A stretch of DNA of 45,957 bases, taken from contig BFEA01000004.1 of NCBI GenBank assembly GCA_003427395.1, positions 7,100,037 through 7,145,993 of the forward strand, in the 5' to 3' direction. Below the pieces are notes generated by a model. The model was not told the origin of the DNA, did not search any database, and saw only the letters and a list, made by a program, of their open reading frames with translations. Source of the stretch: Chara braunii. Taxonomy: Eukaryota > Plantae > Charophyceae. This document shows, piece by piece, positions 17,680 to 43,000 of this stretch. The first letter of the stretch is position 1. Each line of letters begins with the position of its first letter. The position numbers and the translations under genes are program-made.

Positions 17680-18515
17680 TGTGTTGCATAAATAGCAAGT
17701 TAGCAACCCGTTGTCGAGCGCATCAACTCCCACTTCCTCGCAAAAGGTGAGAGCCCTCCCGACCACGTCACGCATGAGTAAAAGAAAAAACAACAAGAGA
17801 CAACTCGGGGACAACTCATAGACAACTTTCGCCAATCGTTGAGACAAACGAGGTCGCGTTGTCACCTTGCCGCTCTAGCCGCGTGCGCCAGCCGTACCTC
17901 TCATGGTCTCTTACGACAAGATAGGTTTCCGCGAGGTGCAACTTACCTTCCCTAAGAGGCAAGATTGGTTAAAACGTCGACTAGACCCAAACGCAATCCG
18001 TTACCTGATGCGCTGATCTTCTAGGTACGAACCGGGCGTGGACTGTGGTTATGGCTGTGCAACTCCACCTTCTTCCCCCTGAGCACCTTCAACTCCCTCA
18101 ACTTCTTGCAGAGCTCCCACCCCTCCAGCGGCTCCTCCTTCAGCTCCCTCAACATCCGACCCGCACTCAAGAATGAGTGTGGGCAGCACCTCACACAAAT
18201 ATGAGGCAGCTGGTCGGGCAGCCCAACTTTTATACTTGTTAGAGGGACTGTGGGAAGCACTTGAGCTCAACCCAAAATTCGAGCTCATGCCTGGGCCCTT
18301 GATCTAAACCCAAGATCAAGGGCCACAATCACTGATTTTTCCCTAGAGAAACTAGAACCCTTCAATTTTAATGTACTTGGCCTTTTCCCAGGCCACGTGC
18401 ATCGAGGATAGGTTGCACCGGACCTTTCATTATTGTGCTACTCCAAGCACAATAGCCCCCCCTTACTTTGTACCTTCCCCGGCTCACGGCCAGGTTCGTA
18501 CCCCTCCCCCTACAA
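17680..18515 (-). mobile_element. Solo-LTR-like remnant related to 19564-20024
   Basis: Shares GTTGTCGAGCGCATC, CCCTCCC..CC.CGTCACG and GCGAGGT.CAACTTACCT with 19620-19800; TATA-like TATAAAA on the minus strand at ~18227-18233. No clean TSD. Confidence 0.5.
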
Positions 18516-19488: not shown

Positions 19489-19512
19489 GAAAAAAAAAGA
19501 TTTTTTTTTTTT

Positions 19513-19566
19513 ACCATTTCTCGATTCATGCGTATCATCCTTGCGCAGGGGTCATGCAATCTCTGT
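19513..19566 (-). pseudogene. U6: U6 snRNA 3'-half retrocopy with poly(A)
   Basis: Reverse complement ACAGAGATTGCATGACCCCTGCGCAAGGATGATACGCATGAATCGAGAAATGGT followed by A12 matches the plant U6 3' half. Confidence 0.88.
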
Positions 19567-20024
19567 CACTATGCGGCCAATCTCGGCCACCAGATCTCAG
19601 GATCATGCGATCGAGATTGACCGTTGTCGAGCGCATCGGTCCCTCAATGGGCGAGACCCTCCCAGCCGCGTCACGTAGGAGTTGGTCTTATCGCGATACA
19701 AATGGAGCTTCCATTGCCGCTCCGACCGAGTGTACCAACCATGTCTCTCGCCAGCCCCTACTACAGGATAGGGCTTATGCGAGGTACAACTTACCTCAAC
19801 TTGCGGGAACTGTCATCTCCCTTCGGTGGGCGTATCCCTGCCGAGCTACCAGTCCACACTACGAAAGTTAATCAGTTGCAACCGCAGAGGTGTGTCAGCC
19901 GAGGGCATTTCTCATACGCTGTAGCATAGGGGGTACACGCGGTCCCACGCCTCTATCGGGCCCGCATTTGGGGGCTGAAGTGCCGAGCGCTGTCGAGCGC
20001 ATCGGTCCCGCACGGGGACCCTCC
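19564..20024 (-). mobile_element. LTR 3' portion (U5-like) of the gypsy element, ending ...GTGACA at 19564
   Basis: Terminal CA abuts the unrelated U6 flank; internal direct repeat TGTCGAGCGCATCGGTCCC (~19625 and 19991); similar to the LTR remnant at 17.7 kb. Confidence 0.55.
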
Positions 20025-21676
20025 TTTATGGTGCCGGCCCTCAATCTCTGCTCAACCTCTTCACTTTCGCTTATCTCCTCTATCCTCACGCCCTGATGAT
20101 CTTCTACTTCCTGCCAAATACAGAAAGCGGCCGGGGGGGCTGGTGGAGCTGGGGCATTAGCACGCCGCAGAGCTTCTTCCCTTATCCCCCCTGGGATTCT
20201 CGGGTCTATGCACTCACCGTACATGTCGAAAAATCACCATCATAGCTTGAACTCATCAGGCAATCCTTTTCATCACTCTTCCGGACCTGACATAACTTAA
20301 TTGTGTGACCCTTTTGGCCACAATGCCAACAGATGGCATTTCTCCAATTTATCCTTCCTCTTCCATATCCTCCACCGCCTTGCTGGTCACTCTGATTCCC
20401 CGCACCGTTCCACCTGTCACTTCCTCCTCTCTGGGAGTTACTATTCGCGTTTCCTCTCCCATATCCCCCGCGGCCACCATTTCCTCGCCCTCGGCCTCAT
20501 CCTTGATTTTGTCTCCGTCCGGCGTCCACCACCTTGATTCCCTTGTGATCCTTGTGGGGCCGACTGCTGAGGTTGGCTTGGCGGTGGGTTCGAGTGACTC
20601 ACCTGTTGAGACTGGGGTCCCGACTGTTCACAGGAAGCAGTACTCATCCGCGCTCCGGCACATGATCCATGTGGCCCGCCCGTTGGCCATGGTGCATATG
20701 AATAGTGTCCACGCCAATGATTGGGAGGTCCACAACCTGGCCATGACCCATAGGGCGCTGGTGCGGCTTGACCGGACGACTCTGGGGGTGGCATCGCCAC
20801 AGCCGGCGCGGCTTGACCTTTTCCTGAGCCTTGCCCTCCTTGAGTCGTGTTCCTTGCCTTCCTTTGAGCCTTTGTCAACTTTTGTGGTTCAGGTTCCTCT
20901 TCTTCTTCTTCCTCCTCCTCTAGCACTGCCACCTTCTTTCCTTTCCCTTGGGCTTGTGGCGCCGTCATAGCCTTCTTTCTTGCCTCCTTTTCTGCATCGT
21001 GCTGGGTCACAGTCTCTTCTATCATTAGTTTGAAGTTGCCCCCATCACTAGCGATAGTATCCAAAGTCTTCCTTTTCTTCCTAGCCTGTTTCATCTGGAA
21101 GATGTCTACCTGGCCCAACTCTCCCTCTAGCACGCCTTCTTTTATGGCACCCCAAGTAAGTTTTTTTCCTGGCGCAGCTTTCTTGGTTAGCGACGAGGCT
21201 TCCCAATTCTTGAAGTGCCCCAGGAAAGTGGCACACTGTTCTTCTTCTGCCAGCCCTAGGACTTTTTTTGCCATCTTCTCAAATGCTGTGGCAAAGGCCC
21301 CTACCGTGGAGAACTCGTCCCGTCTCAACATTTCCACGTCTTCTTTTGTGAGAAGGACGTCCCCTAACTTGAAACGCCTCTGCATCTCTTCTTTAAACCT
21401 TGCCCACTCACCATTTGCGTCGGCCGCTACTTTCATTACCTCAGGTCTAAGCTCCCACCATAAGTACCTAGGCCTCAACTTGAATTTGTCTGCCTCTGAT
21501 GCCTCGCAAGTGACCTGCTCCAACAGCTCAAGCCACTCGGACACCCTATCCCCATTGAACTGGAAGATGTTAACCTTGGGCACCAGAAGCCGTGCCATCT
21601 CTCTCTTTTCCAAAGCCTTGACGAAGTCCTCCGGTGTAGCACCCGGGCCCTGCTCGATTCCATCGGAGTCCGGCAT
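20020..21676 (-). pseudogene. gag: Ty3/gypsy gag, N-terminal block (capsid-like region, Gly-rich linker, CCHC knuckle)
   Basis: MPDSDG...VPKVNIFQFNGDRVSEWL...; frameshift near 20520; CWHCGQKGHTIKLC (CX2CX4HX4C) at ~20293-20334; ends at AGTIKE. Confidence 0.88.
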
Positions 21677-22023
21677 CTTTGTCCTTTCTCAAAACCTGTT
21701 GCAAAAAAAACAATTTCGACAAACATCTTGCCGTCAAACCTCTAAACTCTCTAGTTCCATTATTCAATCGAACATACTTTTAATAACTAAGGTAGTCTAT
21801 CCGGCCTTTATATCGTAATTTCGACTCTATTATTTGAAACGAATACACACAAAGCACACTCTCAACCTTACTCGCAATCAAAAATAAATTTTGTTAGGCC
21901 ATCGAAGATAGCACAATACTCATATCATCATCAAACTTCTTCATCAAGGGTTGTTGTTTTGCCTGAATCATCAGCCTGCTCTTAACCTGGGTTCCTTCAC
22001 TGTGGACCCCGGTAGGCAGCCGA

Positions 22024-22043
22024 GATCCCCGGCAACGGCGCCA
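22024..22043 (-). promoter_or_regulatory. Primer-binding site complementary to tRNA-Asp, abnormally fused to pol instead of an LTR
   Basis: TGGCGCCGTTGCCGGGGATC is the complement of the plant tRNA-Asp(GUC) 3' end, the Athila-type PBS. Confidence 0.9.
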
Positions 22044-22740
22044 CCTCGTCTTGAAGTAGAGCATTGGCCAAGAGGTATATCCCACCTATCGACCTCTCGT
22101 GCCCTTCCACCTGTTGCGCCCCATTTTCCATCATGAGTAGGTCTTCGTGCAACTGGTATTTGTCTGCTAAGGCTAGATTCATCATCCACTGCACGTTTGA
22201 CACTCCCCATGAGTCTTCCTCAATGTAGGGCTTAAGAACTAGATCTGATCGTCGTACATGTCCTGGAGGCGCGAGCCACACAGGTTGTCCAGGAGTAACG
22301 TAGTTACCCACGGCCATCGACCAGGAGTTGATGTGAAGTCTCACATCCTCCTCACTGTCCAGAAACCCGTCGACTGGCGGAGTATCCTCGATCACTCCTT
22401 GATTATTTTTGTCCCAGTCGACTAGACTCAATCCGTCTGCTCTATTCTTATTTCCTGGAATTCGCTCTAATTCAAAATCGAACATCCAGATGTATGTTAA
22501 CCACCTGGCGATAGTCGGGTCTGATGGGGCGAAGTTCTTGAGAGAACCGGCTAGAGCAGTTGGGTCCACCCTCAACACGAACCTGTTGCCGAAGAGGTAG
22601 TTTCTAAAGATCCTTAAGCAATGGAGAACCGCCAAGGTCTCGCGCTTAAATTGAGAGTAATTTCTCTCAGTTGTGTTAAGCGTGCGACTTTCAAACCTTT
22701 GTGGCCGCTCTTCTCCGTTAAGGTCTTGCTGAATCAACAC
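22044..22740 (-). pseudogene. pol: Ty3/gypsy RNase H and linker (5' part deleted)
   Basis: RNYSQFKRETLA, LRVDPTAL, NRADGLS; ends at LLQDEVA. Confidence 0.9.
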
Positions 22741-24052
22741 ACATCCTAGCGCAGTTGGCCCTGCACAATTCCTTCTTTAGGCCCTTTATTACCAACTCCT
22801 GCTTATCTCCCCATTCCCAGTCTTGTCCTTGACGCACGAGCTTTCGAAGCTGTTCTGTCTTTGCCGCAAACCCTTTTATGAAGATCCTCCAGAACCCACA
22901 TGTCCCGAGGAAACTTCTCACCTCCGTAATAGTCTCGAATGGGGTTGGCCATTCGAGAATCTTATTGGTTTTCTTAGTGTCTGGTCGACGACCCCTCTCG
23001 TCGCACACAAACCCCAAGATGGTGGCCCCGCTCATGCAGTGTCTCGATTTAGACTCACTTGCAATGAGGTTATGCTCCTTTAGCAGGTTTAGGACTCTGC
23101 ACAGGTCTTGCACATGGTTCCAAACAAAGCGTCTAATCCCTGGCATTACCTCCTGCTCGTTCTTCTCTTTAGGCCCTTTTACGACTAAATCATCAATGTA
23201 AGGCTGAGTAATGTGAGGGCTTACTGACTGCATTGCCCTCACCATGTGCTTCTGTACCATGGCGACTGCATTTATCCACCCTTGTGGTGCGACGTTCATA
23301 TGAATTAACCCTCGAGGGGTATGCATTGTCGTCATCGGTCTGTCAGAGGGGTAAATAGGAAACTGGTCGTAACCAGAATATAAGTCTATGAGAGATATGA
23401 TGGCTCTCCCAGCGTATGCCTCTGAAAGCGCATCTGCGTTAGGGAGACTACCTGCATCTCTCATAGTTACAGCATTCAGGAGCTGCAAATCCTGTACCCA
23501 CCTCAAGGTCCCGTTTGGTTTGACGAAACAAAACCAAGGGGATGCATATGGTCCGCTCGAGTAGTCGGACACATGTGTGCGGATTTTCCCGTCAAGGTAG
23601 CTAACTACCTTTTTTTCGTCAGCCGGATTAGGGTACCGCGCGCCTCGCAAATTCCATGGCTCGTGGGGAACGGTATGTATCCTAATCATTGGGATTCTAT
23701 CCACGTCCAGACGGTCCCGTTCATCATCATTGAAGGCATATGCAGTATGCCTTCCTCTTATGGTCTCTACCATAAACCTCTCCTCTTGCGCCGTAAGGAA
23801 GCCGGGTTCCCCTATAATCAGCGTCTTTTCTGTCTCGGGAGTGATACGACATGACCCTATCTGTGCGTCCTCTCGCATTTGTCGTATCAATTCTCGTTCC
23901 CGCTCGTAATAAACTTTTTGCTCCTCAGTAACGAGTACGGGAACAGGGCGGCACTTCTGATCTACCCTCTTATACCGCCTTTGTGAACCCTGCTTGAGCT
24001 TACCCCTAAAAAGGCCGAGTTGCAGTTTGGGGCTGTGCTCCTGCGATTCCAC
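22741..24052 (-). pseudogene. pol: Ty3/gypsy reverse transcriptase
   Basis: YASPWFCFVKPNGTLRWVQD, IDLYSGYDQ, PQG, YIDD, VRSFLGTCGFWRIFI. Confidence 0.95.
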
Positions 24053-25139
24053 CTATCCTTCCAGGCACTCGATATACGAGTTCTGCCTCACCTTCACCTC
24101 TCCTCTCCATCACCTTTTCCCTGAGGGCTTCTACTGCCACAGGGTCTGCCATTCCATAGGTGGATACTATGTCCATAGCATCCCCTATATTAGTCAAGCT
24201 GAGGGAGAGGNCCTCNNATGGCTCTTCGCCTTCAAACACCTCACCCTCCAACCTCAACCTTTCTACCTCTGACTCTTCAATAGTAAAAGAGTCAGGGTTG
24301 GGCCGATTTCTTATGCTTCGTGGCCCTGTGTTCTTGCATGTGATTACCTCATAGCTCCCACACACAGGGTCACAAAGTACCAAAAACATGGTCCCATCAT
24401 GCTTATTCAGTATGACGGTCTTCCTTCAGCTCAAAAAGGATCGGCCCAATAGGATGGGATGGTCGAGATCGGTCATTACAAAAAAACAACTTCTCACTTT
24501 AACCTTGCCAATTTTTAAAACCACTCTCGATGCGGTCCCTATGAACACAGACCGACTATTTGCTCCCATTAAAACTCCATTATCCGAGCGATCAATCTCC
24601 ATCCCCAAGCGTAAAATATGTTCCTCTTTTATGAGGTTCATTTCCGCCCCAGTATCCATCATTGCCGTGCACATTTTTCCTTTTACTACTACGTCCAAGC
24701 ATCCACATGCGACGGACTTCCAATCCATCTTCGTGCCTGTCTCTGCCCATTCCGCTTCCCTGGGGATAATGGTTCCCAAGCGCACACTTGCCACTAACCT
24801 TCTGGACAATCGAGCCTTTAGCTCATCCCTCAATTTTAGAGCGGAGGCGAGGATATCTTTTAAGTTCATTAGGTCGTTATGGCCCTCAAGGAGTCAATTG
24901 ACCATTCCTTCCACGTCAAACCCCTCCTCCATTCTGACCTTATATTTTCTTCTCTTGCCCTCTTGTTCCTTACTAGCGCCGGCCTTTGCATCCCTCTTTT
25001 TGGCTATTTCTTCAGCCTTCTTGTCCTCTTCCGTCCTTAACCTTTCAACAGGTCCTCCATCTTCTCCATCGTATCTCTTGCCCTTACCAAATTATCATCT
25101 TCTCCTTCGCCGTCCGATTCAACCACTATGGGTTCCTCC
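24006..25139 (-). pseudogene. C-terminal block of the gag-protease ORF (aspartic protease)
   Basis: Starts EEPIVVESD; MDTGAEMNLI active site; ILLGRSFL; in-frame TGA stops (probably from CGA); ends ...TRPF*. Confidence 0.9.
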
Positions 25140-25871
25140 CCTTTGGGTCATCTCTGCAGTCTGCTCCTCTTTCCGTTGAGTCCTGCCAATATGCTGGTCC
25201 TCCCGTCTCTCCTGCCTCTGGGACCTGTGCTCTCTCCTCTGGCCATCCCTCTGAGCTCCTGAGGTCATGCCCTGCTCAGAGGTTCTCCTCTCTGCAGTTT
25301 CTGGCTCCTTCCTCTTTCTTCCCATACTCCTCTCGTCAGCCTGACGTGCCGGAGTATAGTGGTTCCAAAGCAATTTCTTGCAATGGCCCCAGTTCTGGGC
25401 AGGCTCCACAATAGATCTGACGAACGGCCTGAGGTATTTCCTCACAAACAGAATAAAACTCCTCACCCTCTGGCTTGGTGGCTCGTTGATGCTATCTGCA
25501 AACTCGTCGTAGCCCTTCAGGAACTCCCACAGGTTAGTGGCATCAAAACGAATGGGCCGTCCATCTCTGCCTAGCGGCGATGGGTGCAAGCCCTCCATCT
25601 TCTGCTCAAAATCCTGCCAGGTCAATGACTCCCTGACGAAGTTGGCAAGGGGCTGTGCCCACTCGCCTGCTCCTCGCACCTCCCGCAGCATCCTGCTACT
25701 ATCCCATCCAAACTCATGACCGTGCCTCCTGAACCCAACCATGAACAGCTCAACGTTGTCTCCTGTATAAATGGGTGGCCAGTCCTCTCTCCTGGCCCTC
25801 ACCTGCGCCCCCTGTCTGGTAACCCCCAGTGGGGTTTCCACTGGCCCTGCCCCTCCCCTCCCTCTTGGCAT
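25135..25871 (-). pseudogene. N-terminal block of an extra ORF (ORF3) downstream of integrase; Gag-capsid-like
   Basis: MPRGRGG...PPIYTGDNVELF...RFDATNLWEFLKGYDEF...W; preceded by a pyrimidine tract and TGCAG acceptor ending at 25897. Confidence 0.65.
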
Positions 25872-26136
25872 GGCTGCCCAAAAACTGGTGTCAAGCCTGC
25901 ACAACAAGGAAGAGACAGACAAAAGCACACAAAGGGTAAGTAGGTTCGACAAACAAAACAGGAGACAGACATTCCCCTCCCATATCTACCTTAACTACAT
26001 ATACATACATGTGTAAATACACGTATATAAATCTATCTTAATACTATACTCTATCACACCATTCTACTGAGAAACATACACAATTTTCCCATATATATAT
26101 ATATATATATCTAGTATTACTTAACAGAAAGGGATT

Positions 26137-27520
26137 CTAAATTGTGGGACCCATGCTCACCTCGTCTCGAGCGACAAACTTCTTCAATCTCGAGCCTGAC
26201 ACCCAATCTTTCCAGGCAGTCCCATTCAGCTCTTCAATCTGGTATGCCCCATGCTCTCCACTCCTCGTGACCATGTATGGTCCTAACCACCTCTTGTCCA
26301 ACTTTCGCGACCACTGCTTCTCTAAGGATGAATGGTATAGTAGCACAACGTCGCCCACCTTGAGAGGCTCCTTCCTTACCCTTGCCATCTTATCCCACCT
26401 GAACTTATCCCTCTGTCCGGTGTCAGCCACCTTACTCGCCGCACTTTCAATTTTGTCCTCTATGACATTAATCTGATGAACCCTTAAGTCTAGCAGTTTC
26501 TCAAATGACAAGTTTGTCTCGAGGTCCTGCCGCCTCCAAGTCTTTAGGAAACTTTCGATAGGGAAGGTCGCATGTCTGTCATACCACAACGTTGCTGGCG
26601 CGTAGTTGGTGCTTCTTCTGACAGTGATTTTATCCACGAAGAAGGCGACCCTTAGGAAGTTAGGCCACTGATTTGGCCTACCATTCGTCCACTTAGCGAG
26701 GAGATTCGTAATCGTACTATGACCCCTCTCCACAGGTGCATTAGCTTGAGGGTGCGCCGCAGTAGTATACTCTGCGATCACTCCATACCCTCTCAGCAGT
26801 TCTTTCACCTCAGCACAAGTGAATTCGGACTCTCTGTCCATTACGAATTTGGAGACAAAAGGGTAGCGGAGGTAATACTCCTCAATGCATCGAGCCAAGG
26901 TCTCACCAATTTTTGTGCGTATGGCTCTGCCATCTACAAAACCGGAGAGGTTGTCACGTGCATCGAAGATGAAGTTATACCCACCTACTCCCAGCGGCAT
27001 TGCCAATAAGTCCAAATGTACGACCGCCCCAACCTCACGTACGTACCTTGGGTGAAGCGGCTCCCTAGGTCTAATGGAAGACCGCTCCTGGCATGAAACA
27101 CATGACTTGCAATAATCGTTGATCATTCGTCCCATGCCATCCCAATAGTATAGCTCGTGTATTTTGAGGAAAGTTGTATCCTTACTCCTATGTCCACCTG
27201 CCTTACCATCATGTAGGGCAGTTATGACGTCGATCTGACGAGCGATGCCGCAGACTACCCTTCTTGGAGTCTTCCCTTTACTCTTCATAAATAGATGGTC
27301 ATCCCTTACTAAGAAGTTTGGTCGCATCTTGAGAACTTTCTCGCACGTATCTTTCTCTCATTTCGCACGAAAGGAGCATTCCTAATTCCAGATATATCCC
27401 GTTATACTCCTCCGTGCGAAAAACCTCTTTTATCTCTCCCTCTTCAAAATCGTGGTCCTCTCCTTCGTGAACTATATTCTCATTCTCGCCTTGCCGTTGA
27501 TCCCCGATCCTTGCCACCTC
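26137..27520 (-). pseudogene. pol: Ty3/gypsy integrase (HHCC, DDE, GPY; no chromodomain), with a frameshift near 27310
   Basis: LHDGKAGGH...CVSC; VHLDLL; FVMDRESEF; PVERGHST; WLGPY. The upstream linker starts EVARIGDQ. Confidence 0.93.
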
Positions 27521-28850
27521 CGCTGGCAAGTAGCATTACAACTGACAATCATTCATACGATGTCGCTCACAATCCCGTCTAGGCAATATCCTGCATCAGT
27601 ATCTGAAGTAGTAAACGACAGCTCCTAGAATTTGCAATTGCTGCTGCTAAAACCATCCTCTCTCAGCAGCAACGTCGCCGCACAAATTCAAACAACAGTT
27701 GTCGACAGGCTAAGTCTCAGTAGCAGACCCAATGATGACCTCCATCATAGTAGTACCTCATGCTTAACAACACCATCAATACTTCAAAAGAAAGAAAAAG
27801 GGAGACTCGCTGCTCTGTTGTGCTGCTGTAAATAAGACAACAATGTCGGAGAACTCAATCAACATAGCAGTTCGCAGACTTTCAGGGCATCAATAACCAC
27901 CAAAATAGCAGTTGCCGATCCACAGACCATGTGCATGACTCAAGAATACTTCAACTGTTGGTGTCGCAACTTAAGTAAGTCTGTTGCTGCGAAAATCCAA
28001 ATCAGGCCTCCAGGGGTCCGCTACAGCCTTCCAAAGGCCTGCTACAACGCCGTAACAGTAGCCAAACATCAATCCACTGCTGCTAGAAGTCCCTTCTTAT
28101 AGACAGATGTTTGCTGCAATACCAAAAAAAAAAGGTCCACAATGACTCAAATCTGGGTGAAGTAGCAACGGAGCAGGACCTAGACCAATCGTGAAGAGAA
28201 AAGTCCAACCCACTGCATTATTCATCAATGCACACAGTGGAACTGATTCCCCCACTAAAGTACGACCAGATACAATGTCAGATTTTGTACTGAGCTAAAC
28301 TGTGCAACTCAACACCTTGGTTCCTCTCGTATGGCGGCTGCTCCAACACTCATCATCTTGCAAAACAAAAGTAAATCTTCGGCTAGAACATGGGAAGATG
28401 CATGCCCTTCTTGCCTGATATCTTAACTTCCGTTCGTCCCGTATTACCGCCACTGCCAGCCAAGTACACCCTTCCCTCCATTTTCTTGTATTCCACTTCC
28501 TCCTCCTCTACCTATTTCCGATGTGCCGCCAAGCAAACTGCGGACCAGCCAGCAACCGTAGTGATACAATGTGAATGTATATGTGCTATTTTTCCGGTCC
28601 GGTACAACCTTCCCACACCTGTCTACATGACTACACCCACGCTCGCGCACACATGCACACACCTGCACACTCACCACCATGCTCACGCTCCAGCGCATAC
28701 GTGCTTGTGCCTACATGCTCACCCGTATGCACGCGTGATTACACCTTCCTGCTTCTCTTCTTCCCCTCTACCTCTATTCCTCCTCTAAAAGTTGTCATGT
28801 CCAAGGATATGCCGCGGCACATTCTTCAATAATCTACGAGCAAGTGCTTG

Positions 28851-28895
<45 letters not shown>

Positions 28896-31800
28896 TGTGC
28901 CTTCTCTCTCTCCAGGTACGGGCATACCTGGCCATTTCACCTAACAGGAGGGGGAGAATACTTAGCGTTCAAGGCATGATTATGGTCGAGATCCCCCTGA
29001 AAAGGCAAGCACGAGGATGAGCCTACTCACGAAGACATAGCTGAGTCACGATGGTGATGATGAGCCTGCTCCCGAAGACATAGCTGAATCACGATGGTGA
29101 CGATGAGCCTGCTCCCGAAGACATAGCTGAATCACGATGATGACGATGAGCCTACTCCCGAAGACATAGCTGAATCACGATGGTGGGCTCAAGCAACAGA
29201 ACCACGAAATCTGCAGCGTCAGAATCGGGATGAGGAGCACCAACCCGTCACACAGTCCCCCACCAGAAAATGCAGAATGAGAATGAATCTGATGCAAAAA
29301 CGCAGGAAAATACACCGCCGAAATTCCTTCCCTGCGTTTGCTTTCTGCCAAGCACAACGCAGCCTCTGACTCACACAACAGAAAAACGGCTACCCTATCG
29401 CAGAATCTAACCGCGCCAATCGATTCCTGGTGCCTCAAAACCCCAAGTTAGGCTCTTATTTCGCTCGAATCCGTAAAGAAACGAATGAGATAAGTGTTTT
29501 CTCCTCCTTGCCATATCCTCTTTCCCGTCACCTCCGNGCACTCTCTTCATCTCCTAACTTTAATCCAACTAACGTTTCACCAAAAGTGAACCCAAATTCG
29601 GGGTCGCCATAGTCAATAACCCTGAAATAGACTCTTCTTCGGCCCCATTTCATCAAGTAACGGCCTATATCTCATCTCTTCACCCCCTGTTTCCCATTCT
29701 TCTTGTTCTCCTATTTTGAATGCACCTTGCTCATACCCACGTCCAGATCCATTTGCCCTCCTTGGTTCTTTAGTCAGGCCAGCGCAATCTCCATCTCCGT
29801 TCTCTCTCTAGGCCGGCCAGCGCAGTCTCCTTTGTCCCCCTCGAAGTGGGAATCTGCCTCGTCTCCCTCGAAGTGGGAATCTGCCTTGTCTCCCTTCATA
29901 CCTGCTCTCCCTCGACACCATCTTTCCCTTCTTCTTCCCCGTAGCCCATTACTCCATGAGCCTCTCCCGCCAGCCAAAGTACGCCCAGATGATAGCGCAC
30001 GGTCCAACAATCTTGAGCACCTTAATGGAAGTGAAATCCTGATCGCCGGACCTCGCTGTCCTATATAGCCTAGAATGGCATATTTGCATAGCTTACTCGT
30101 GCCACACTCAAGGAATGAATCNGGCCAAATCTAGGCACTAGGTCCATTCANCCCAAGAAAAANTGTAGTGCAGCTCCTCAAAAGGAGAAGAGGGGCTGAG
30201 AAAAGAAATACAAATAAAATAAAAATAAAAGTTGGGCTTGGTGAAATGCCTAAACGATGGGGTCGTGGCCCACCTAGGTGCCTTCTCCGGATCGGACTCT
30301 GATCTATATTTCAACAGTCTGTGAGTATGCCAATCGAGCTAGGCTTGTTGGTACTTGCTAGCATTGCTGCAGCCCCCACCAAAATCCCTCTGGTCCGCTG
30401 TTCCCAGGCGTAGCTCCCCTACTACCGCCCCCAACAGGCATGCTCACATCCACTCCTCACAGCGGATCGTGGGCAGCGGACGTAGCCTCCCTCTGGCTGC
30501 GTCCTGCTTCGAGGCCTGTAGCATGAGCCTAGGCGGGACGGATCCCAACACGGATCTTGGTGGTCATTATTCAAATGAGAATTTTTGAAGATGGAAGTGG
30601 GGAGGGGCTCTATGTGACCGCAGCTGCAGCCGGCGGCCTCCGCCCTGGTGTGCCCGCCCCATTGTGCCCAAGCGCAGTCTACCATCTTTCTGGTCTCAAC
30701 GGGAATGCTCACACTGCGGTCCCAAATCTGCAAAATGTGCAGATTTTGGAACAGACTAGTTCGGGGTTTTGAGCATGGTTCAGGTCACACTACTGTACCT
30801 TTTCAGGTTGGATAGAGCCCTGGCTGTCTGGAGCATTGGCGAACCGATACTTTGCTGGTCACCCGGCGCCATCCACATATTGTGCAAAAAAATCCAGGTC
30901 CCGAAATAAATAAATAAAAATAAATAGGGCATTTCCCTTGCCCCGCGGCTCCACAGGCCGCTGACAAAATGGGCACACCAATGGTGCATCCGGGACTTTG
31001 GCAAAAATCTGCGTGACCAGTCTTGTCCCTCATGGGCCCCAACGGGCATGCTCCCACTCAGTTCCTACTGCAGATCGTGGTTGGCGGACACCGCACTTGC
31101 AGAGAGGCGCCCAATGCTCAACTTTTCCTCCGTCTCGCGGTCAGTCACCCATCAGTTGTCATGCACGTTGACTTTCTCCGTCTGCATTTCAACAATTCAT
31201 GGGCGTCAATCGAGCTACGCTCGCTGGACTCCTCAAACAACTCCGATACCGGCATTGTCACCGCATCCCAGAAACGGGACCGACAACAAAAAAAAATAAT
31301 TAGATAAAAATAAAATAAATAAAAAAATAAAAACACAAGCTTCAGGAACTCGCGCTTTGGGGAAGAGAGATTGTCAGTACCACTCTTAGTTCCGCCAACC
31401 GGGCCTACGGATGGGCCGACAACAAAACCAAGGGGGATAGCCCTGCCGGGCCCTCAACCCCTCGATATCTTCAGGAAATGCTCCTCCGCTCTTGTAATGC
31501 TGGGTGCTGGCCTCCATCCCGAGATCTGCTGGCTGAAAGTTCAGTACGTTAACCAATAGGGCTAAGCCCAAGCCTGACCTTAGCATACGCGAATTCGTAT
31601 ATCAGTAGTATTCGCAGCCTGTCTGGGCCTGTAGTTAATGCACTGAGGCCGCCGCTTGCTCCGCCTTCGAGCCTAAGGCCTCGCAATGCCGTGCTTGGCT
31701 GCTTGGGAGGAAAGTTATCGCTCAGATCACCATGCCCACTGCCCCGCCACACTGCGGCCGCGGCCGAGGCTTTCATAGCCCTCTACACCCGTCAAACGAG

Positions 31801-33521
31801 CGCGCTCTTACCCCCCTTCGGTTGGAAAGACCCCGACTTTTGCTCATGCCGTACCAAGTTAAGCTTTCCTCGGCTCCCACTGTNNNNNNNNNNNNNNNNN
31901 NNNNNNNNNNNNNNNNNNNNNNNNNNNNNNNNNNNNNNNNNNNNNNNNNNNNNNNNNNNNNNNNNNNNNNNNNNNNNNNNNNNNNNNNNNNNNNNNNNNN
32001 NNNNNNNNNNNNNNNNNNNNNNNNNNNNNNNNNNNNNNNNNNNNNNNNNNNNNNNNNNNNNNNNNNNNNNNNNNNNNNNNNNNNNNNNNNNNNNNNNNNN
32101 NNNNNNNNNNNNNNNNNNNNNNNNNNNNNNNNNNNNNNNNNNNNNNNNNNNNNNNNNNNNNNNNNNNNNNNNNNNNNNNNNNNNNNNNNNNNNNNNNNNN
32201 NNNNNNNNNNNNNNNNNNNNNNNNNNNNNNNNNNNNNNNNNNNNNNNNNNNNNNNNNNCTATCCAACCCTCTAGCTTATTTCTAACTGGGACCGCCGAGC
32301 GGTCTGTTTTATTCACACTAGTCAAACATTTAGCTAACGCGTGCCCACAAAGTGCATGCCCGCACACACTCCCTGAATTAACCATGCGTGCGCTCGCCAT
32401 TTCCTGAATTCCGAGAGTCAGTCGCGACCGAGCGAAAAACACGCCGCTCTCTCAAATACCATCAAGTGTGCTCCCGCTGCGGGGTGCAAAAATGCGCACA
32501 ATTACCCTTGTAAGGGTAATGGTGTCGACAGTTTTTCCGGACCCTATTAAGCGACGTCCCCGTCGCGTCGAACAATCAAAGGCTATAAGCACTCCAAATC
32601 CCATCTGCTGACGAGGTAGTAACCATTCCGACTAGCCGGCTCGACTCCGTTAGAGGCATCTTGTCAATCTACCCCAGTCACGACGTTCCACTGCCACGGT
32701 TTTAACCTGGGTCTCCCACATCTTGGCCTAGGAGTTAGGGTGTACTGTCATCCGTACTACAGCGTAATACCTGCTTCCAAGTAGTAGATTGGTAGCCCTC
32801 CTCCCTTCGTCGTAGACATCTGCCGGTTTATCGTTGGGTGTCCTAATGAGTCATCGTCCCGCATACGGGGTCATAACTCAGGACGCGGGCCCTAACCGAG
32901 ACCTCTCTAAAAAACCAGGGCACCTTTAGTCCCCAAAATGGTAATTTTTACCATCTCAAATATTTCTCATAATAACTGTCCACCCTGGTGTCTACACAGG
33001 AGGTTTCAGGTCTCCATCTTGGCCCACCGCAGAATGGTCGATCACACCGTATCCACGGCTTATCACGCTGTTATATAGCGATGATGCCCTCGTTGGTTGC
33101 GCAACGATAGGCGTACTTACCAACTCTTAGACTCATTCAACCCCACTGACCCCCCCCCTAGCTATCCCTCTCCGGGCGGCCGACCCTTCAAGATTTAACC
33201 ATTGGTGAGTCGTGGTCTCGCTGCCAAGTTGCGCCGGTCAGCGGCCCTCGCTGGGAGTTAGGTTCTATAGTTCCAACGATGCTAAGTATAGCCCCTTAGC
33301 TTGGCCTCACAAAATATGTCCCCCTAGACTAACCATTGTGGTCTGACAAATAGCTCTGGACAACCTCTAGATTCACATACCCTCCCAACCTCGGACCATG
33401 TGGGGGATAGTGTCTCTTTCTCTTTGTGTTCCAGCAACTTTCTCTCTTATCCACAAGGTCGTGCCCCCCCTTTACTTTGATCAGAACAGGCGGCGGTCAC
33501 ACGTCTTAGGGACACCTCACA
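27521..33521 (-). mobile_element. Long non-coding LTR-like region (may include nested pieces; contains a gap)
   Basis: Candidate LTR start TGTGAGGTGTC at 33521, just after purine-rich GATGGGAGA and downstream of the ORF3 3' UTR; TATA-like TATATAG at ~30061-30067; no real ORFs. Confidence 0.4.
29016..29185. repeat. 43-bp tandem repeat x4
   Basis: GATGAGCCT.CTC.CGAAGACATAGCTGA.TCACGATG.TGA. starts at 29016, 29059, 29102 and 29145. Confidence 0.92.
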
Positions 33522-34577
33522 AAAGTCTCCCATCATGATTGCCAGAAAATTTCCATCCATAATTCTCACAAAGATTTTGGTCTGCCCTCGCCAGACTTTC
33601 ACTCATACATACAATTTCCTCATCATTATAGCAACTCATTTGAGTGCGCCCTCATAGTTCCACTCTTATATATATGTGGAGAACCTAACGGTCATTGAGT
33701 CTCCTTCTCTCGTTTTCTTATGAACCATACAAAAGACACAACTTTTAGTTGTGACCTCTCCATTTATCATCACTCAAATTCTTTTGAACTCAACACATAA
33801 TCCCTTCTTCCAAACAAACGTGAGGTGCACTCTCTTTCACTGTACTTATGACTTTGTCTGTTCTAATGACAGATATGCTTAAGTACAGAGGAAAATAGTG
33901 CAGGTCAGGTCATTTCCACAACATTTATTCTCGTCACAATAATCATTCATATGGGCAAGTCAACAACTGAGAGTGAGCGTGACACACCACACAAAAAAGA
34001 AAAAAAATCTGAGATTCGCACAAATACACAGAACGCGGGGACCTTGCAAATAAGCAAAGGTTCCTGTTAATATCGAAAGGATCAAAATATCGTACAAAAG
34101 AAATAAAATATCGTACAAATTACCGGGGTATCGTACCAAGTGCCACAGTATCCAACCAAAGATCAAGGTACCTGAAAAAAGTCAAAATATCCGAGAAAGT
34201 CAAAAAACAAAAGAGAGTCAGAGTATCCACACCTCACATCACTCACACACTGTCCGACTCACCCTGCTCTGAAAGAGAAAGAATCATAAAATCACACAAA
34301 AGCACTACCTAGAAGCTAGAAACACTCCACACCACACTAAAAAAAGAGAAAGGAAAACCGAAGTAGTTACTGTCATACACAATACTATCCTATGTACACT
34401 AAGTCTGAAAGTCTATATGCGAAAGTAAACATCTTTGTAATGACTCAATTAACTGATGTACATGGGCGTGATCCAATCCTCCATGTGTTCTCCTATATAC
34501 AGTCATCCATCAGTAGTGAGTCAGAGATGTTCTACACATGTCAGAATCTAGACTTTTTCGGACTCTATTCGTAAATC

Positions 34578-36155
34578 CTACTCCTGATCACTCATGTCCT
34601 CCTGCAGTTGCCTATACAACTGTGCCCGTATCCCATCACGAGTCTTCAGGATCAGGTTTCCATCTCCGTCCCTGCGCACGCCAGATGGATCCCATGAAAA
34701 CAAACCATCGGCCTCATCCTTGAGGCTTTTGGAACAGGTTTTCTGTGGGTGCTTGCCTTTCTTGCAGTAGAAGCATCTTCCAAACTTCTTCTGCTCCATC
34801 TTATCAGCTGCATGGGAGGGTACAAATGAGGGGTTTGCTGTGGCCTCACTGGTGACCTCCTGCTGTGGGTGCTCTGGGGGAATGGGGCATGCTGCTCTGT
34901 CATCTGTTTGCGCCATCTGCTCACTCACTCGCTCCTCTGCCCCGGATCCAGTGGCCCAAGATCCCAGTGCATCCTCCAGACCTGCAACCAGAGGCATATC
35001 CTGAGGTGGTGGGGTCTTCTAAGAGACCTCCCGCTCCTCCCTCTCCTCAGCCTCCGCCATGGCCTGTCCCACACTCTCCTGAACCTTCTGTCGCCCCACA
35101 GTCTCCCCCTGAGTCATGGGAAGTGCAGCCTCATCCATCGCATCCTCTGCTGGTGGCCTCGCCTCATGTGCCAAGACTGTGGGCATCCTCCACTCAAACC
35201 CCCCAGTCTCTGACCCCGTCCCTGCTAGAGCCTCCTTAGGCTGTAACATCTCCTTATCTAGCAGGGGGATTTCCTCATCCTTCTGCTCGTTTGCCCTCTC
35301 TTCCACCTTCTGACACTTGAAGGCCTCCTCTGCAGGCTGCTTCCTGATCTTAAGCCCCTGGACCTCTGTCCAATCCACCACCGTAGTCGGCGTCTGTTGT
35401 ACACATTTGGCCTCAAGATCCTCTATCCTTTTCTCCCACTTGGCTTCCTTTGCCTGAAAAATATTACGTTGTACCTGCAAGTAGGTCCTCAGGGTGTCAT
35501 TGACTTTGTTGAGGGTCTGGTTGACCTGTCTGATGGCCTCGTTGCCTGCCCACGCCTTCTCCACCTCAGTCTTTATGGCTTCCATCTTCTTGTCCTGTCC
35601 CTCAAACTCCTTCTTGAGATCACCAATTTCTTTCTGCCAGTCCATTTTCTGCTCATGAGACGCCCGCGCCACCCTTGTCAACCTCTTCTCCATCTTTTCA
35701 TCAGAAGTCTTGGCCGTCGCAAAGCCCTCCTTCATAAGGCCCTTCAGGCTAATCAAGTCTGTAGACACCAGCTTAACCCCCATCTCTTGATGCTGCTCCC
35801 TGGACCTCCCTGTTGCCTCCAACAACTTATCAAAGTTGTCCCAAGCCTCCGTGAAAAAAGGAGTCTCATCGTCTTGAGTGGGTGAGCCATTCCCCTCTCT
35901 GTCTTCTAGTACCACAGGCTGCTCTCCCTGCTCAACTTTCTCGTGCAGCTCCGCCATGTTCTTGAGTCTGATTTGGACTCTGATTTCTCTCTCTATTGCT
36001 GCTCTCTCTTCCTTGTCCTGTTCCTTCTCTCTCGCAGCCTGATCCTCATCCTGTCCCTGACCCTGTGTCCTATGAGACGTCTCTGGCTGCATGCCTGGCC
36101 TAGGAGTGGCCTCAGGTATCTGAGCAGGTTGAGGAGGTACATCTGATCCCTCTGA
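34578..36155 (-). pseudogene. C-terminal block of ORF3 (coiled coil plus CCHC zinc knuckle)
   Basis: Frame is open from 36155; E/K/Q-rich heptad region; CFYCKKGKHPQKTC (CX2CX4HX4C); disruption near 35010. Linking it to ORF3N is inferred. Confidence 0.65.
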
Positions 36156-39100
36156 ATGCCTTCAATGATGATGAACGGGGCCGTCTAGACGTGGATAAAA
36201 TCCCGATGATTAGGATACATACCGTTCCCCACGAGCCATGGAATTTGCGAGGCGCGCGGTACCCTAATCCGGCTGATGAAGAAAAGGTAGTTAGCTACCT
36301 TGACGGAAAAATCCGCACACATATGTCCGACTACTCGAGCGGACCGTATGCATCCCCTTGGTTTTGTTTCGTCAAACCAAACGGGACCTTGAGGTGGGTA
36401 CAGGATTTGGAGCGCCTGAATGCTGTAACTATGAGAGATGCAGATAGTCTCCCTAACGCAGATGCGCTTTCAGAGGCATGCGCTGGGAGAGCCATCATAT
36501 CTCTCATAGACTTATATTCTGGTTACGACCAGTTTCCTGTTTACCCCTCTGATAGACCGATGACGACAATGCATACCCCTCGAGGGTTAATTCATATGAA
36601 CATCGCACCGCGAGGGTGGACAAATGCAGTCGCCATGGTCCAGAGGCACATGGTGAGGGCAATGTAGTCAGTAAGCCCTCACATTACTCAGCCTTACATT
36701 GATGATTTAGCCGTAAAAGGGCCTAAAGAGAAGAACGAGCAGGAGGTAATGTCACGGATTAGACGCTTTGTTTGGAACCATGTGCAAGACCTGTGCAGGG
36801 TCCTAGACCAGCTAAAGGAGCATAACCTCACTGCAAGTGGGTCTAAATCGAGACACTGCATGAGCGGGGCCACCATCTTGGGGTTTGTGTGTGACGAGAG
36901 GGGTCGTCCACCAGACACTAAGAAACCCAATAAGATTCTCGAATGGCCAACCCCATTCAAGACTATTATGGAGGTGAGAAATTCTCGAATGGCCAACCCC
37001 ATTCAAGACTATTATGGAGGTGAGAAGTTTCCTCGGGACATGTGGGTTCTGGAGGATCTTCATAAAAGGGTTTGCGGCAAAGACGGAACAACTTCGAAAG
37101 CTCGTGCGCCAAGGACAAGACTGGGAATGGGGAGATAAGCAGGAGTTGGTAATAAAGGGCCTAAGGAAGGAATTTGAATAAGGGGGTCTAGTACTGGGAG
37201 TACCAGACCACTCGACAGTAATGACACGACCTTTTATTGTAGAAACTGATGCAGGGTCAACTGCACTACGAGGTGTGTTGATTCGGCAAGACCTTAACGG
37301 AGAAGAGCGGCCACTAAGGTTTGAAAGTCCCACACTAAACATAACTGAGAGAAATTACTCTCAGTTTAAGCGCGAGACTTGGCGGTTCTCCATTGCTTAA
37401 GGATCTTTAGAAACTACCTCTTCGGCAGCAGGTTCGTGTTGAGGGTGGACCCAACTGCTCTAGCCAGTTCTCTCAAGAATTTTGCCCCATCAGACCCGAC
37501 TATCGCCAGGTGGTTAACATACATCTGGATGTTCGATTTTGAATTAGAGCGAATTCCAGGAAATAAGAATAGAGCAGACGGATTGAGTTGAGTCGACTGG
37601 GACAAAAAAAATCAAGGAGTGATCGAGGATACTCCGTCAGTCGACGGGTTTCTGGAAAGTGAGGAGGATGTGAGACTTCACATCAACTCCTGGTCGATGG
37701 TCGTGGGTAACTACGTTACTCCTGGACAACCTGTGTGGCTCGCGCCTCCAGGACATGTACGACGATCAGATCTAGTTCTTAAGCCCTACATTGAGGAAGA
37801 CTCATGGGGAATGCCAAACGTGCAGTGGATGATGAATCTGGTCGTAACAGACAAATACCAGTTGCACGAAGACCTACTCACGATGGAAAATGGGGCGCAA
37901 CAGGTGGAAGGGCACGAGAGGTCGATAGGTGGGATATACTTCTTGGCCAATGCTCTACTTCAAGACGAGGTGGCGCCGTTGTTGGGGATCTCGGCTGCCT
38001 ACCGGGGTCCATAGTGAACGAACCCAGGTTAACAGCAGGCTGATGATTCAGGCAAAACGACAACCCTTGATGAAGAAGTTTGATGATGATATGAGTATTG
38101 TGCTATCTTCGATGGCTTAACAAAATTTATTTTTGATTGCGAGTAAGGTTGAGAGTGTGCTTTGTGTGTATTCGTTCCAAATAATAGAGTCGGAAATACG
38201 ATATAAAGGCCGGATAGACTACCTTAGTTATTAAAAGTCTGTTCGATTGAATAATGGAACTAGAGAGTTTAGAGGTTTGACGGCAAGATGTTTGTCGAAA
38301 TTGTTTTTTTTGCAACAGGTTTTGAGAAAGGACAAAGATGCCGGACTCCGATGGAATCGAGCAGGGCCCGGGTGCTACACCGGAGGACTTCGTCAAGGCT
38401 TTGGAAAAGAGAGAGATGGCACGGCTTCAGGTGCCCAAGGTTAACATCTTCCAGTTCAATGGGGATAGGATGTTGAGTGGCTTGAGCTGTTGGAGCAGGT
38501 CACTTGCGAGGCATCAGAGGCAGACAAATTCAAGTTGACGCCTAGGTACGTATGGTGGGAGCTTAGACCTGAGGTAATGAAAGTAGCGGCCGACGCAAAT
38601 GGTGAGTAAGCAAGGTTTAAAGAAGAGATGCAGAGGCGTTTCAAGTTAGGGGACGTCCTGCTCACAAAAGAAGACGTGGAAATGTGGAGACGGGACGAGT
38701 TTTCCACGGTAGGGGCCTTTGCCACAGCATTTGAGAAGATGGCAAAGAAAGTCCCAGGGCTGGCAGAAGAAGAACAGTGTGCCACTTTCCTGGGGCACTT
38801 CAAGAATTGGGAAGCCTCGTCACTAACCAAGAAAACTGCGCCAGGAAAAAACCTTACTTGGGGTGCCATAAAAAAAGGCGTGCTAGAGGGAGAGTTGGAC
38901 CAGGTAGACATCTTCCAGATGAAACAGGCTAGGAAGAAAAGGAAGACTTCGGATACTATCGCTAGTGATAGGGGCAACTTCAAGCTAATGATAGAAGAGG
39001 CTGTGGCCCAGCACGATGCAGAAAAGGAGGCAAGAAAGAAGGCTATGGCGGCGCCACAAGCCCAAGGGAAAGGAAAGAAGGTGGCAGTGCTAGAGGAGGA

Positions 39101-40020
39101 GGAAGAAGAAGAAGATGAACCTGAACCACAAAAGTTGACAAAGGCTCAAAGGAAGGCAAGGAACACAACTCAAGGAGGGCAAGGCTCAGGAAAAGGTCAA
39201 GCCCCGCAGGCTGTGGCGATGCCACCCCTAGAGTCGTCCGGTCAAGCCGCACCAGCGCCCTATGGGTCATGGCCAGGTTGTGGACCTCCCAATCATTGGC
39301 ATGGGCATTGTTCATATGCACCATGGCCAACGGGCGGGCCGCATGAATCATGTGCTGGAGCGCCGATGGGTACTGCTTCCTGTGGACGGCCGGGACCCCA
39401 GTCTCAACAGGTGAGTCACTTGAACCCACCGCCAAGCCAACCTCAGCAGTCGGCCCCACAAGGATCACAAGGGAATCAAGGTGGTGGACGAGGACAAAAT
39501 CAAGGATGGGGCCGAGGGCGAGGAAATGGTGGTCGCGGGGGATATGGGAGAGGAAACGCGAATAGTAACTCCCAGAGAGGAGGAAGTGACAGGTGGAACG
39601 GTGCGGGGAATCAGAGTGACCAGCAAGGCGGTGGAGGATATGGAAGAGGAAGGATAAATTGGAGAAATGCCATCTGTTGGCATTGTGGCTAGAAGAGTCA
39701 CACAATTAAGTTATGTCAGGTCCGGAAGAGTGATGAAAAGGATGGCCTGATGAGTTCAAGCTATGATGGTGATTTTTTCGACATGTACGGTAAGTGCATA
39801 GACCCGAGAATCCCAGGGGGTATAAGGGAAGAAGCTCTGCGGCGTGCTAATGCCCCAGCTCCACCAGCCCCCCCGGCCGCTTTCCGTATGTGGTAGGAAG
39901 TAGAAGATCATCAGGGCGTGAGGATAGAGAAGATAAGCGAAAGTGAAGAGGTTGAGCAGAGATTGAAGGCCGGCACCATAAAGGAGGGTCCCCGTGCGGG
40001 ACCGATGCGCTCGACAGCGC
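36156..40020 (+). mobile_element. Inverted duplicate of 19987-23739 (RT-RNaseH-PBS-gagN-LTR stub)
   Basis: Collinear reverse-complement match from ATGCCTTCAATG to CGACAGCGC; PBS at 37971-37990 with two C>T changes; independent indels and stops. Confidence 0.95.
36935..37026 (+). repeat. Perfect 46-bp tandem duplication that frameshifts the RT copy
   Basis: ATTCTCGAATGGCCAACCCCATTCAAGACTATTATGGAGGTGAGAA twice. Confidence 0.95.
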
Positions 40021-43000
40021 GACTCGTCGTCGGTCGACTAGGACGCATCCTACTCACCACGCGTTACGTTATGCTTTAAAACATAAAATTAAAAATACAC
40101 TCAAACAAACATAAGAAAACACTCTTATTCCCTTCAGTATCCTACGCATAACCTTCCAATGCAGAAATCGGTTAAGCGACACGTGCGAGACTTAGTATAA
40201 AACTGCACGACGCAGGGTCTTCTCATGTCGACTAGCAATGCAAGCATACGTAAGCAGTCGCAATGACGACGTACCATGTAGTACTCATAATCACGCGGTC
40301 CTCGATAGGTTCGAGAGTCGCGTTCGACACCCAAGTGTCGGTTGACACGCACCTTGAGGGGTTAATCTCTCGACGCTAGACAACCGCAAAGGCGGTTGAG
40401 AATCCCAACTTCTTATGGGCCTTGCGGAGAGTGGGTGGTACACTGGTTCATACCTGTGCAGGTTCATACATGTGGTGTCAGTCGTCTCTCGAGGCTTTGG
40501 AAGCAAGTTCCATCATCCAGGGTCTGGAGAGAGATCAAGGGGTTTAAACTTTAACGGCTGCCACAAACTCCAACGTCCAGCTATATTAATTATAAAAAAC
40601 AGAAGGGTAAAAGAGAATCTCCCTAGACATAATTCGTTTAACCCTTACGCACTGTCACAGCAGGTCGCGTGGACACTCAAGACATATGTATATATATATA
40701 AATAAAGGAGGATAAATATGAGACGACCACTTCTTACAATCATAGTGAGACTCCTTTCAACCATATATGTATGTAATCGCCGACAGTCATATCATGAGTC
40801 CGAACCACAAACATATTTGCAATCACATCAAAGATTCAACCAAAGTCCATACACTACACGAGGTCAACTTCAACCATTCTCTACACTCACACCCCTCAAT
40901 TTAGCCATACAAACTCCAACCTTTGTCCAACCTTCCATAAATAAAGCACTCAATATCTTTGTTAAATGGTCATTCAATAAAGTCCGGTGAAAACCCAACA
41001 AAACAATTCAAACCACAGGGTTACGTTGGCGAGAGTGAATTGGAGTTGAATTGTAAACCGACGAATCGACAACCAACATATTATCAGTGATATCAGAAGA
41101 TGATCCCCATGGGATCAAGTTGAATCTAGTCCAATCCCGAATCGAATAAATCAAGAGGACCTGTAACATAAGACAGACCAATTCCCAAGGCTAAACTATT
41201 AATGTATGAGGAATGAATTTCAATAACACATTCTCACTCTAGATTCTCATGCTAACTAAGTCAAAGTCTACCACTAAACCATTGTCCAAAGAAAGGTAGA
41301 CCTTTGGCAGAATCTCACCTTTTGCAGGGTGGATTGTCATAATTGCTACTTGTCAAAATATAATCTAATTCCTTCAAACTAAGAAAATTTCGACAGTGTT
41401 TTCCGTAAGAAAAATGCCTTCTCATAATTTATACTTAGTTCGAGTATGAAAACGGAAATAATCTCTAACTCTTGGAAAATCAAAATTTGTCTATCTCTCT
41501 GAATTAGAAAAAAAATTGGCAGCATCTCCTTTAGAAAAGTAGACTTCCCAGATTTATACTAACTCGGATATGAACTCAAACATAACAATTGAGTTTTATC
41601 AAGACAAATATTAACTAACTTTTTAGTTTTGTAGAAATTCCGGCAGCGCTTCCCATAGGAGAAGTAATTTTCGAAAATTTATACAAAGCTAAGTTCAGAA
41701 TGTGAAATAATCTTCATTTTCCAAAGTTAAATTTTGTCTAACTCCTTGAATTAGCAAAAATTCGGGTAACACTTTCCCTATAAAAAAAAAATTCCAAATT
41801 TTTACCAAGTTAAATATATAACTTAGACAAAAAAGTTGAACTTTGAAAGTCAGATTGGACTAACTTCTTGGTTTTGTAGAAATTTCGACAGTGCTTCCCG
41901 TAGGAGAAATACCTTTGCAAGATTTATACAAAGCCAAGTATAACAAATGATCTTAGAAAACACTCTTTGTGAGGAAGTCAACAGGTGGAAAGGAGAGTTA
42001 CCATTAGTAATAACACAACCCCGTGCTTTATTTGAAGTGCAGGGAAGATGTAGTTGCACTCAAAGGAATTTTTGCGCATTCAACAACTGCGCACAGCATC
42101 ACGACATGATAGCTATGCACGACTCTACGCCCAGTAAGCCAGTAAAGGCACAATCCCCGACATAGGAACACACGATGTGCATAGGAACGCAACAGCGGTA
42201 CGCACAACATTTAGCGCAATCTCCTTGTTATGACAACCACTCATGCCTGCGGCGACAGACTGAAAACCCAAATGTAGTCTTGATTTCATAGCACTAGCTA
42301 CAGTTGCGAGGGTACTACGTAGCAACAGTCTTAATCTTCATAATTGTGCTCAGATACATTGCCAGCACAACTGCTCTCAGCAGAAGTGGTCCCGTAGCAC
42401 ATAACTAACAATTTGCCTCACGTGATGACAACGCCCCGACTGACAACTAACAACTAAACCTGCCATCGCGCAGCTGACCTCACTCCATCTGTTGACAATC
42501 GGTGGGCGAGCGACACATCGAACCTCAAGTAAGCCTCTAACCTTCGCGGCCCGCTCCTTGCTATGTCAATCGTTTGGCTGAGCGAAAATAAGAATGACTT
42601 TCCTGTTAGAACGCAGAAAGGTACACGCAGATATTGGACAGAGCCATCAACACGACGTAAGCCCGCCCGCTGCTATTCTGTTGCCTCCCCCTCTCTATAT
42701 TCTTCCTTCTTTTTCCGTTTATTTTACTCTCACCCCTTACTCATCTCCTCTCCGACCGACACCTGGTCACCCTCGACGGTAAAGAGGATGATCACTGCGC
42801 CGCCTCGTTCGTAATGGTCAGTCTCTCTCTTCCTCTTCTCGTCCCGACCCTTTCTCGATGTGCTTGGCCCGTAATAGCGGTTGGGCTTGTTCCGTTTCGC
42901 ACTCTACAAAGACGGGCATAACCATGCATTTTGTCGCCTCTGACTCCTCAACAGGCCTTCTTCTTAAACACAAGTCGACTTGATCAGGTAAGTATGACTT

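Follow-up and report, generated by a model that had tools for sequence, protein, structure and literature searches.

The stretch of Chara braunii DNA analyzed here (45,957 nucleotides, in the following called the window) harbors a unit of about 20 kb (19991-40016) in which the parts of a retrotransposon are arranged in reversed block order. The fusion of the RNase H (RH) end of pol to the primer binding site (PBS), which a first-pass annotation had pointed out, is one of at least five joints of this unit; the block-reversed arrangement as such had been missed. The unit is a derivative of a Ty3/gypsy element and not an intact member of this group. With moderate confidence, it can be regarded as stemming from one round of reverse transcription that derailed and whose product was integrated; in its course, the reverse transcriptase (RT) jumped repeatedly along its RNA.

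Pfam analysis revealed the native polyprotein order protease (PR), RT, RH and integrase (INT), which is that of Ty3/gypsy elements. A tRNA PBS is present, but in this copy it is joined to pol and not located directly behind a 5′ LTR. Two direct flanking LTRs were not found; the like ends of the unit are inverted and a partial LTR is situated internally. In relatives, the native order of the blocks is A (gag), B (PR/RT/RH), C (INT/extra ORF) and D, while in the window the order on one strand (minus) is D, a non-coding stretch, repeat U, C, B and A (Table 1). Mapping to P0002 demonstrated that all three native joints are split with an overlap of two to three residues and that nothing was lost at them. 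Within block B, about 110 codons are absent at ~25046 and 74 bp at ~22766. For the extra ORF, no Pfam family above the cut-off was detected. Ahead of it and behind INT, a pyrimidine tract followed by AG (25880-25985, minus strand) resembles a splice acceptor. The 22 RNA reads that aligned did so at less than 90% identity and were uninformative on expression.

Table 1. Features of the rearranged unit and its borders (positions within the window)
Feature	Position	Strand	Remarks
PBS-like site in the RH-INT linker of pol	27499..27520	-	codons EVARIGD; marks the 5′ end of block C; core GAGG at 27517-27520; native RH continuation in relatives
PBS, tRNA-Asp/Asn type	22024..22043	-	block A starts here; no LTR between it and the RH end to which it is fused
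Block A: PBS, leader, 5′ part of gag	20020..22043	-	P0002 1-327; terminates in GGAGG 20020-20024
Block B: gag end, PR, RT, RH	22044..25139	-	Pfam; P0002 325-800
Block C: RH-INT linker, INT, spacer, 5′ part of extra forward ORF	25135..27520	-	Pfam; P0002 798-1510
Block D: rest of extra ORF	34578..36155	-	P0002 1508-1915, P0003, P0028
Likely 3′ UTR and purine tract, non-coding, following D	32531..34577	-	inferred from position
Repeat U, likely 5′ part of a long LTR	27517..32530	-	TGTCG and a 16-nt hairpin at its start; gap of N at 31884-32258; adjoins block C
LTR-type 3′ end, last ~34 nt, ends CGACA	19991..20024	-	left border of unit; GGAGG links it to gag
GCGC, likely left target-site duplication (NCGN)	19987..19990	.	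flank comparison
Inverted arm: part of RT, RH, second RH-PBS fusion, gag, LTR-type end	36156..40016	+	PBS 37971-37990
GCGC, likely right target-site duplication	40017..40020	.	flank comparison

The joints have short cores in common, namely GAGG (U/C), GGAGG at 25135-25139 (C/B), TGGC (B/A) and GGAGG (A/LTR-type end). Record 18 of run X5 departs from the window at 25135. Block A begins exactly at the first base of the PBS, and the claim that pol is fused to this base without any LTR sequence was borne out, as pol codons run right up to it. By contrast with these joints, the one between D and the inverted arm (36155/36156) is a blunt strand switch with no bases in common. An 88% relative (X2 record 13) tracks repeat U up to 27515 and then diverges; it has GAGGTG at its U end, and if it carries the native bases, the match at the U/C joint amounts to 6 nt (GAGGTG). 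For the gag/LTR-end and ORF/gag joints, an extended homology was rejected since all of 1500 random sites were as good. Upstream of the joint into block C, a similarity was detected that 29 of 1500 random sites equaled; it lies on the uncopied side. As a toy figure, random religation would result in the same-strand reverse order of four blocks in 1 of 48 cases.

Scrambling at the DNA level, by which an inserted element would have been broken, mended by end joining at microhomologies or by template switching during replication and later subjected to an inverted duplication, is unlikely. It agrees with the joint cores of 0-6 nt, three joints having a GGAGG core, and PMC4806543 describes rearrangements with 5-nt microhomology in retrotransposons of maize centromere 10. 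Moreover, a displaced gag-pol scrap of 16 codons is situated at 41962-42009 (plus strand). It is identical to P0002 residues 367-382, stems from the ~110 codons absent in block B and is inverted relative to its neighbor; its position outside the unit hints at a DNA-level rearrangement nearby. However, scrambling accounts neither for the strict reverse order and the break at the first PBS base nor for the loss-free joints and the two like LTR ends with NCGN flanks. A reciprocal exchange between PBS and pol site, which would free a gag-RT circle to be reinserted via two GGAGG sites and yield the order LTR-C-B-A-D, is highly improbable. It would explain C-B-A with two reciprocal-looking joint pairs, but C should then be preceded by an LTR end and A followed by D, whereas C follows repeat U without an end motif and A is followed by the LTR-type end. 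Furthermore, the relative of repeat U diverges two bases short of the PBS-type TGGC. A reciprocal LTR-PBS-INT product, which had been envisaged in the first-pass annotation, was not found, the DNA before INT having no LTR-end motif at its end.

The possibility of an assembly artefact in this repeat-rich draft was considered as well and is quite improbable. The window contains N gaps, two of the joints are single-copy, and none of the scrambled joints was bridged by 31 letters on each side by the best 24 of about 2900 contig pieces. On the other hand, the RH-PBS and gag-LTR joints each exist in two copies, whose surroundings carry different substitutions (8 of 200 bases differ), and the contig of another sample (X5 record 17) matches 24949-25145 without a difference, reaching 10 nt past the C/B joint, which is below the 31-letter rule. 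Cores of 4-6 nt are also too short for joining assembly paths.

On the minus strand, the pol site in the linker (27516-27499) reads TGGC-AAGGAT-CGGGGATC and the PBS (22043-22024) TGGC-GCCGTTGC-CGGGGATC. The resemblance that had been noticed between them was confirmed: they have 4+8 nt in common and both are preceded by GAGG (27520-27517 and 22047-22044). A further match of 4 nt exists between the pol site and the leader right behind the PBS, giving a total of 4+8+4 pairs. As pol codons take the place of the native bases between LTR and PBS in this copy, the common core of both sites may exceed 4 nt. The first 13 nt of the PBS are identical to the tRNA-Asp/Asn PBS motif given in bioRxiv 10.64898/2026.03.20.713144. 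Within the window, no tRNA gene was found. The match of the PBS to the tRNA presumably extends to 18-20 nt.

The two-site pattern, which was derived from these same two sites, occurs twice in the window compared to 0.04 matches expected (100 shuffles). In simulations, 54 of 40000 sites had an 8-nt block no farther than 20 nt away, and the block of the pol site is the sole one within the coding blocks. Gapped anchored scoring was less favorable, the pol site being equaled by 41 of 1500 random element sites in one test and by 81 of 3000 in another. Hence, by these counts, the likeness of this mimic to the PBS is probably real, above chance but modest (P 0.001-0.03). Among 68 sites sharing the first 4 nt, the mimic ranked 20, 2, 1, 1 and 2 when minus-strand ends of 18, 20, 25, 30 and 40 nt were assumed, five lengths being tried with DNA:DNA energy rules as a stand-in; its unanchored rank was 301 of 15654 overlapping segments. 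As the top ranks were reached at 25-30 nt and rank 20 at 18 nt, the mimic probably suits a DNA end better than a primer of tRNA length. In addition, the extra homology sits on the already-copied side, reaches into the leader and can be paired by the 3′ end of the minus strand. Another site, located in repeat U (30871, minus strand), has 8 nt of the PBS start and, when 18-20 nt are considered, gives a stronger short duplex than the mimic does, but no joint was formed there.

Internal tRNA priming, also put forward in the first-pass annotation, is less favored by these data and appears rather improbable. It would imply that tRNA-Asp/Asn primes a second minus strand at the pol site and that the plus strand copies the tRNA end and transfers to the true PBS complement. 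This predicts an identical RH-PBS joint sequence, and C starts at the mimic as A does at the PBS, as if both had been shielded by a primer. Under RNA rules, the mimic even held rank 3 of 207 anchored sites at 20 nt. The usual length of a tRNA primer is 18 nt, however, and at this length the rank was 20 of 207, as it was 20 of 68 under DNA rules, with a duplex energy of -16.9 compared to -42.4 kcal/mol for the PBS. Furthermore, the 4-nt match in the leader is usable by DNA only.

The protein relatives of the element are nearly all named Chara braunii gene models. In the five closest ones, LLQDEV runs directly into ARI[G/R]DQ; by this comparison, the two pol halves (the 27499-27520 site and the RH end at the PBS) are one native pol position. 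The linker is present in 169 of 189 relatives, 145 of which read from RH straight through. Conservation of the mimic across the family was checked at the protein level, and the IGDQ motif was detected in only four of the 189 proteins, all of them among the five closest; in a first set of relatives, the motif had been found in one of 93 linkers. Judged by these alignments, the mimic is a subfamily-specific chance feature of a hypervariable linker and not a conserved signal. No variant inside it occurred among the matches listed in the table of differing letters. A peptide reading through the PBS was found in none of the 189 proteins, which is a weak test because gene models splice and searches favor intact copies. 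Of the 24 models without read-through, eight rejoin within two codons of the site, in forward order with earlier pol parts. These eight do not contain the mimic codons and the gaps may be predicted introns.

A second RH-PBS fusion, absent from the first-pass annotation, is located at 37971 (plus strand). Since it lies in an arm of the inverted duplication, it was rejected as an independent event and is likely a copy of the first. The 3.7-kb arms differ at 136 of 3744 aligned bases (3.6%; K2P 0.037). The proposal of a recurrent hotspot for aberrant transfer could thus not be upheld: both fusions in the window belong to one inverted duplication, the linker is hypervariable and PBS read-through was not seen. 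The RT part of the right arm also contains a perfect 46-bp duplication (36935-37026).

In both arms, the ~34 nt following gag are homologous to the CGACA-ending repeat end at 19625, a score which none of 1000 shuffles reached. This repeat end also closes a copy at 17712, and the TG...CA-type end of the unit thus recurs at two other repeats of the window. The start of repeat U at 32530 (TGTCG and hairpin) is matched by a collinear 65% relative at 45070, which belongs to a copy at 42-45 kb. As both begin with TGTCG and the hairpin, TGTCG...CGACA likely represents the LTR termini. The LTR-end motif was never found adjoining the PBS of the element family, so that the CGACA-ending motif is its putative U5 end. 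A comparison of the end of repeat U with the end of the 42-45 kb relative was discarded because 51 of 200 shuffles were as good, and a coding role of repeat U was rejected. Within repeat U, a 43-bp tandem array is present at 29016-29185.

On both sides, the unit has TG...CA ends and the palindromic sequence GCGC, while the remaining three free ends border on ACGG (two of them) and GCGG (one). NCGN is therefore found at four of four independent ends (19987-19990, 19621-19624, 17708-17711 and 45071-45074), compared to a window background of 0.039 per site. The start at 32530, which is inside the unit, is preceded by purines and not by NCGN. The motifs suggest that CpG targets are preferred, as by Phygy, although the family has an extra ORF and its PBS is of the Asp/Asn type. 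Alternatively, the self-complementary GCGC could represent the tip of the inverted arm and not a duplication, and ACGG at two of the ends could be conserved sequence. When the outer flanks were compared across the unit, only a T-rich match was obtained, and for this reason the idea that the right flank continues another LTR-type copy was rejected. The 42-45 kb relative and the 19625 end may be halves of one older solo LTR (flanks GCGG/ACGG) into which the unit was inserted. A protein search of metagenome and viral contigs yielded no relatives. A 19-nt LTR-end pattern hit 28 metagenome loci, all of which were dismissed as chance matches of high GC content, lacking both further similarity and a relative of pol.

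Several other features were recorded in the window. A U6 snRNA-like copy with an A tail (19503-19590, minus strand), likely a retro-copy, is located 35 bases from an LTR-type end; it matched Rfam RF00026 with 35.4 bits, which is under the gathering score of 44. A small repeat between (AT)n runs occurs at 45225-45340 (minus) and 4126-4213 (plus) and gave no Rfam match; its end at 45340, inspected by eye, presumably resembles a hammerhead core. An AT-rich repeat with a period of ~245 bp spans 41385-41939, and an open frame of 676 codons without a Pfam match is present at 203-2233 (plus).

The plus strand, which corresponds to the order of minus-strand synthesis, reads: U5 end, A to the PBS, B to the first landing, C to the second landing, the LTR part and D to the third, and finally a fold-back through B, A and U5. 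From the observed block order, split joints, homologies, like ends, flanks and inverted arm, the following steps of derailed reverse transcription may be reconstructed. The minus strand would start at the PBS and, after ~30 nt, quit U5 for gag by means of a 5-nt match. It would be copied back to the PBS, where the RNA ends and where plus strong-stop DNA would be absent because the purine tract had been skipped. In a second jump, the free PBS-complement end would pair with the pol site (4+8+4 bp), whereupon block B would be copied back to the first landing, at which RNase H had cut. Similar jumps would lead to the extra ORF (block C) and then to the LTR region (block D). Fold-back onto its own RT copy would create the inverted arm and the second U5 end, and integrase would insert the product with a 4-bp duplication.

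That the minus-strand 3′ end annealed to the mimic had already been proposed. The geometry of this transfer is likely right, the homology lying on the pairable side with rank 1 of 68 at 25-30 nt, while the supposed recurrence found no support. The gag/LTR-end joint has no homology beyond 5 nt, and for the other jumps 0-6 nt were enough; a single jump in a single subfamily would have been directed by the mimic. Some observations count against reverse transcription as the origin of the unit. Block C retains the mimic in full, although cutting by RNase H within the 8-bp hybrid should have removed part of it; this is more in keeping with a site shielded by a tRNA. Besides, the fold-back joint is blunt, and completion of the second strand would require additional, hypothetical steps. 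The full sequence of events, namely that the genome fixed the record of one particle in which RT, deprived of its plus strong-stop partner, walked an RNase-H-cut RNA, used the PBS look-alike as a surrogate acceptor for the second transfer, folded back and was integrated with two U5 ends, is put forward only tentatively.

Scrambled LTR elements are usually ascribed to nesting or DNA repair. If the unit is indeed one reverse transcript, a PBS-complement end that lacks its partner is able to turn to the closest look-alike in what is left of the RNA, and such a product can be completed and integrated with two U5 ends. Genomes would then keep traces from which RNase H cut points and the rules of transfer in vivo can be read; loss-free blocks in reverse order would be their general signature, to be expected in other LTR-rich genomes. 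It can be searched for as a PBS joined to an internal site, reverse block order and inverted like ends. The mimic by itself is of little weight, being subfamily-specific and seen in use once. Aberrant strand transfer is a known kind of event, but for a block-reversed, loss-free, genome-fixed product with two U5 ends no published match was found; the literature search, to which most subscription and older retrovirology papers were out of reach, yielded no report of such a structure.

For HIV-1, PMC12657518 describes proviruses from aberrant strand transfer, which may affect the first strand (prematurely), the minus strand or the second strand. A junction in U5 due to premature transfer of the first strand was found there in 7 of 395 proviruses; according to the paper, integration of such products is not demonstrated. 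These proviruses resemble the unit in the junction of U5 to an internal site, the jumps over short homologies and errors at the PBS step. However, they are single forward-order deletions, whereas the unit possesses at least five joints, loss-free reverse blocks, a fold-back arm and two like ends. With maize centromere 10, the unit has in common joints of ~5 nt inside retrotransposons, but the deletions, duplications and chimeras reported in PMC4806543 are ascribed to break repair, while here contiguous blocks follow one another in reverse order from the PBS. As to its class, the element, judged by its features, is a non-chromovirus-like Ty3/gypsy element that mixes traits of Athila, Tat and Phygy, as these are characterized in PMC6317226. 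The PR-RT-RH-INT order and long non-coding parts are shared with Athila, TatII and Phygy, an extra ORF also belonging to this mix. The Asp/Asn-type PBS is reminiscent of Athila (72% Asp) and of TatII (37% Asp). By contrast, 95% of Athila elements have 5-bp duplications, and the flanks of the unit agree over 4 bp only. Tat elements contain an aRH domain, while no second RNase H family was detected in Pfam scans of the window ORFs, P0002 and P0003 with general profiles. What the element has in common with Phygy of mosses is the 4-bp NCGN target motif, and what separates it from Phygy, described there with a tRNA-Trp PBS and no extra ORF, is its Asp/Asn-type PBS together with a long extra ORF.
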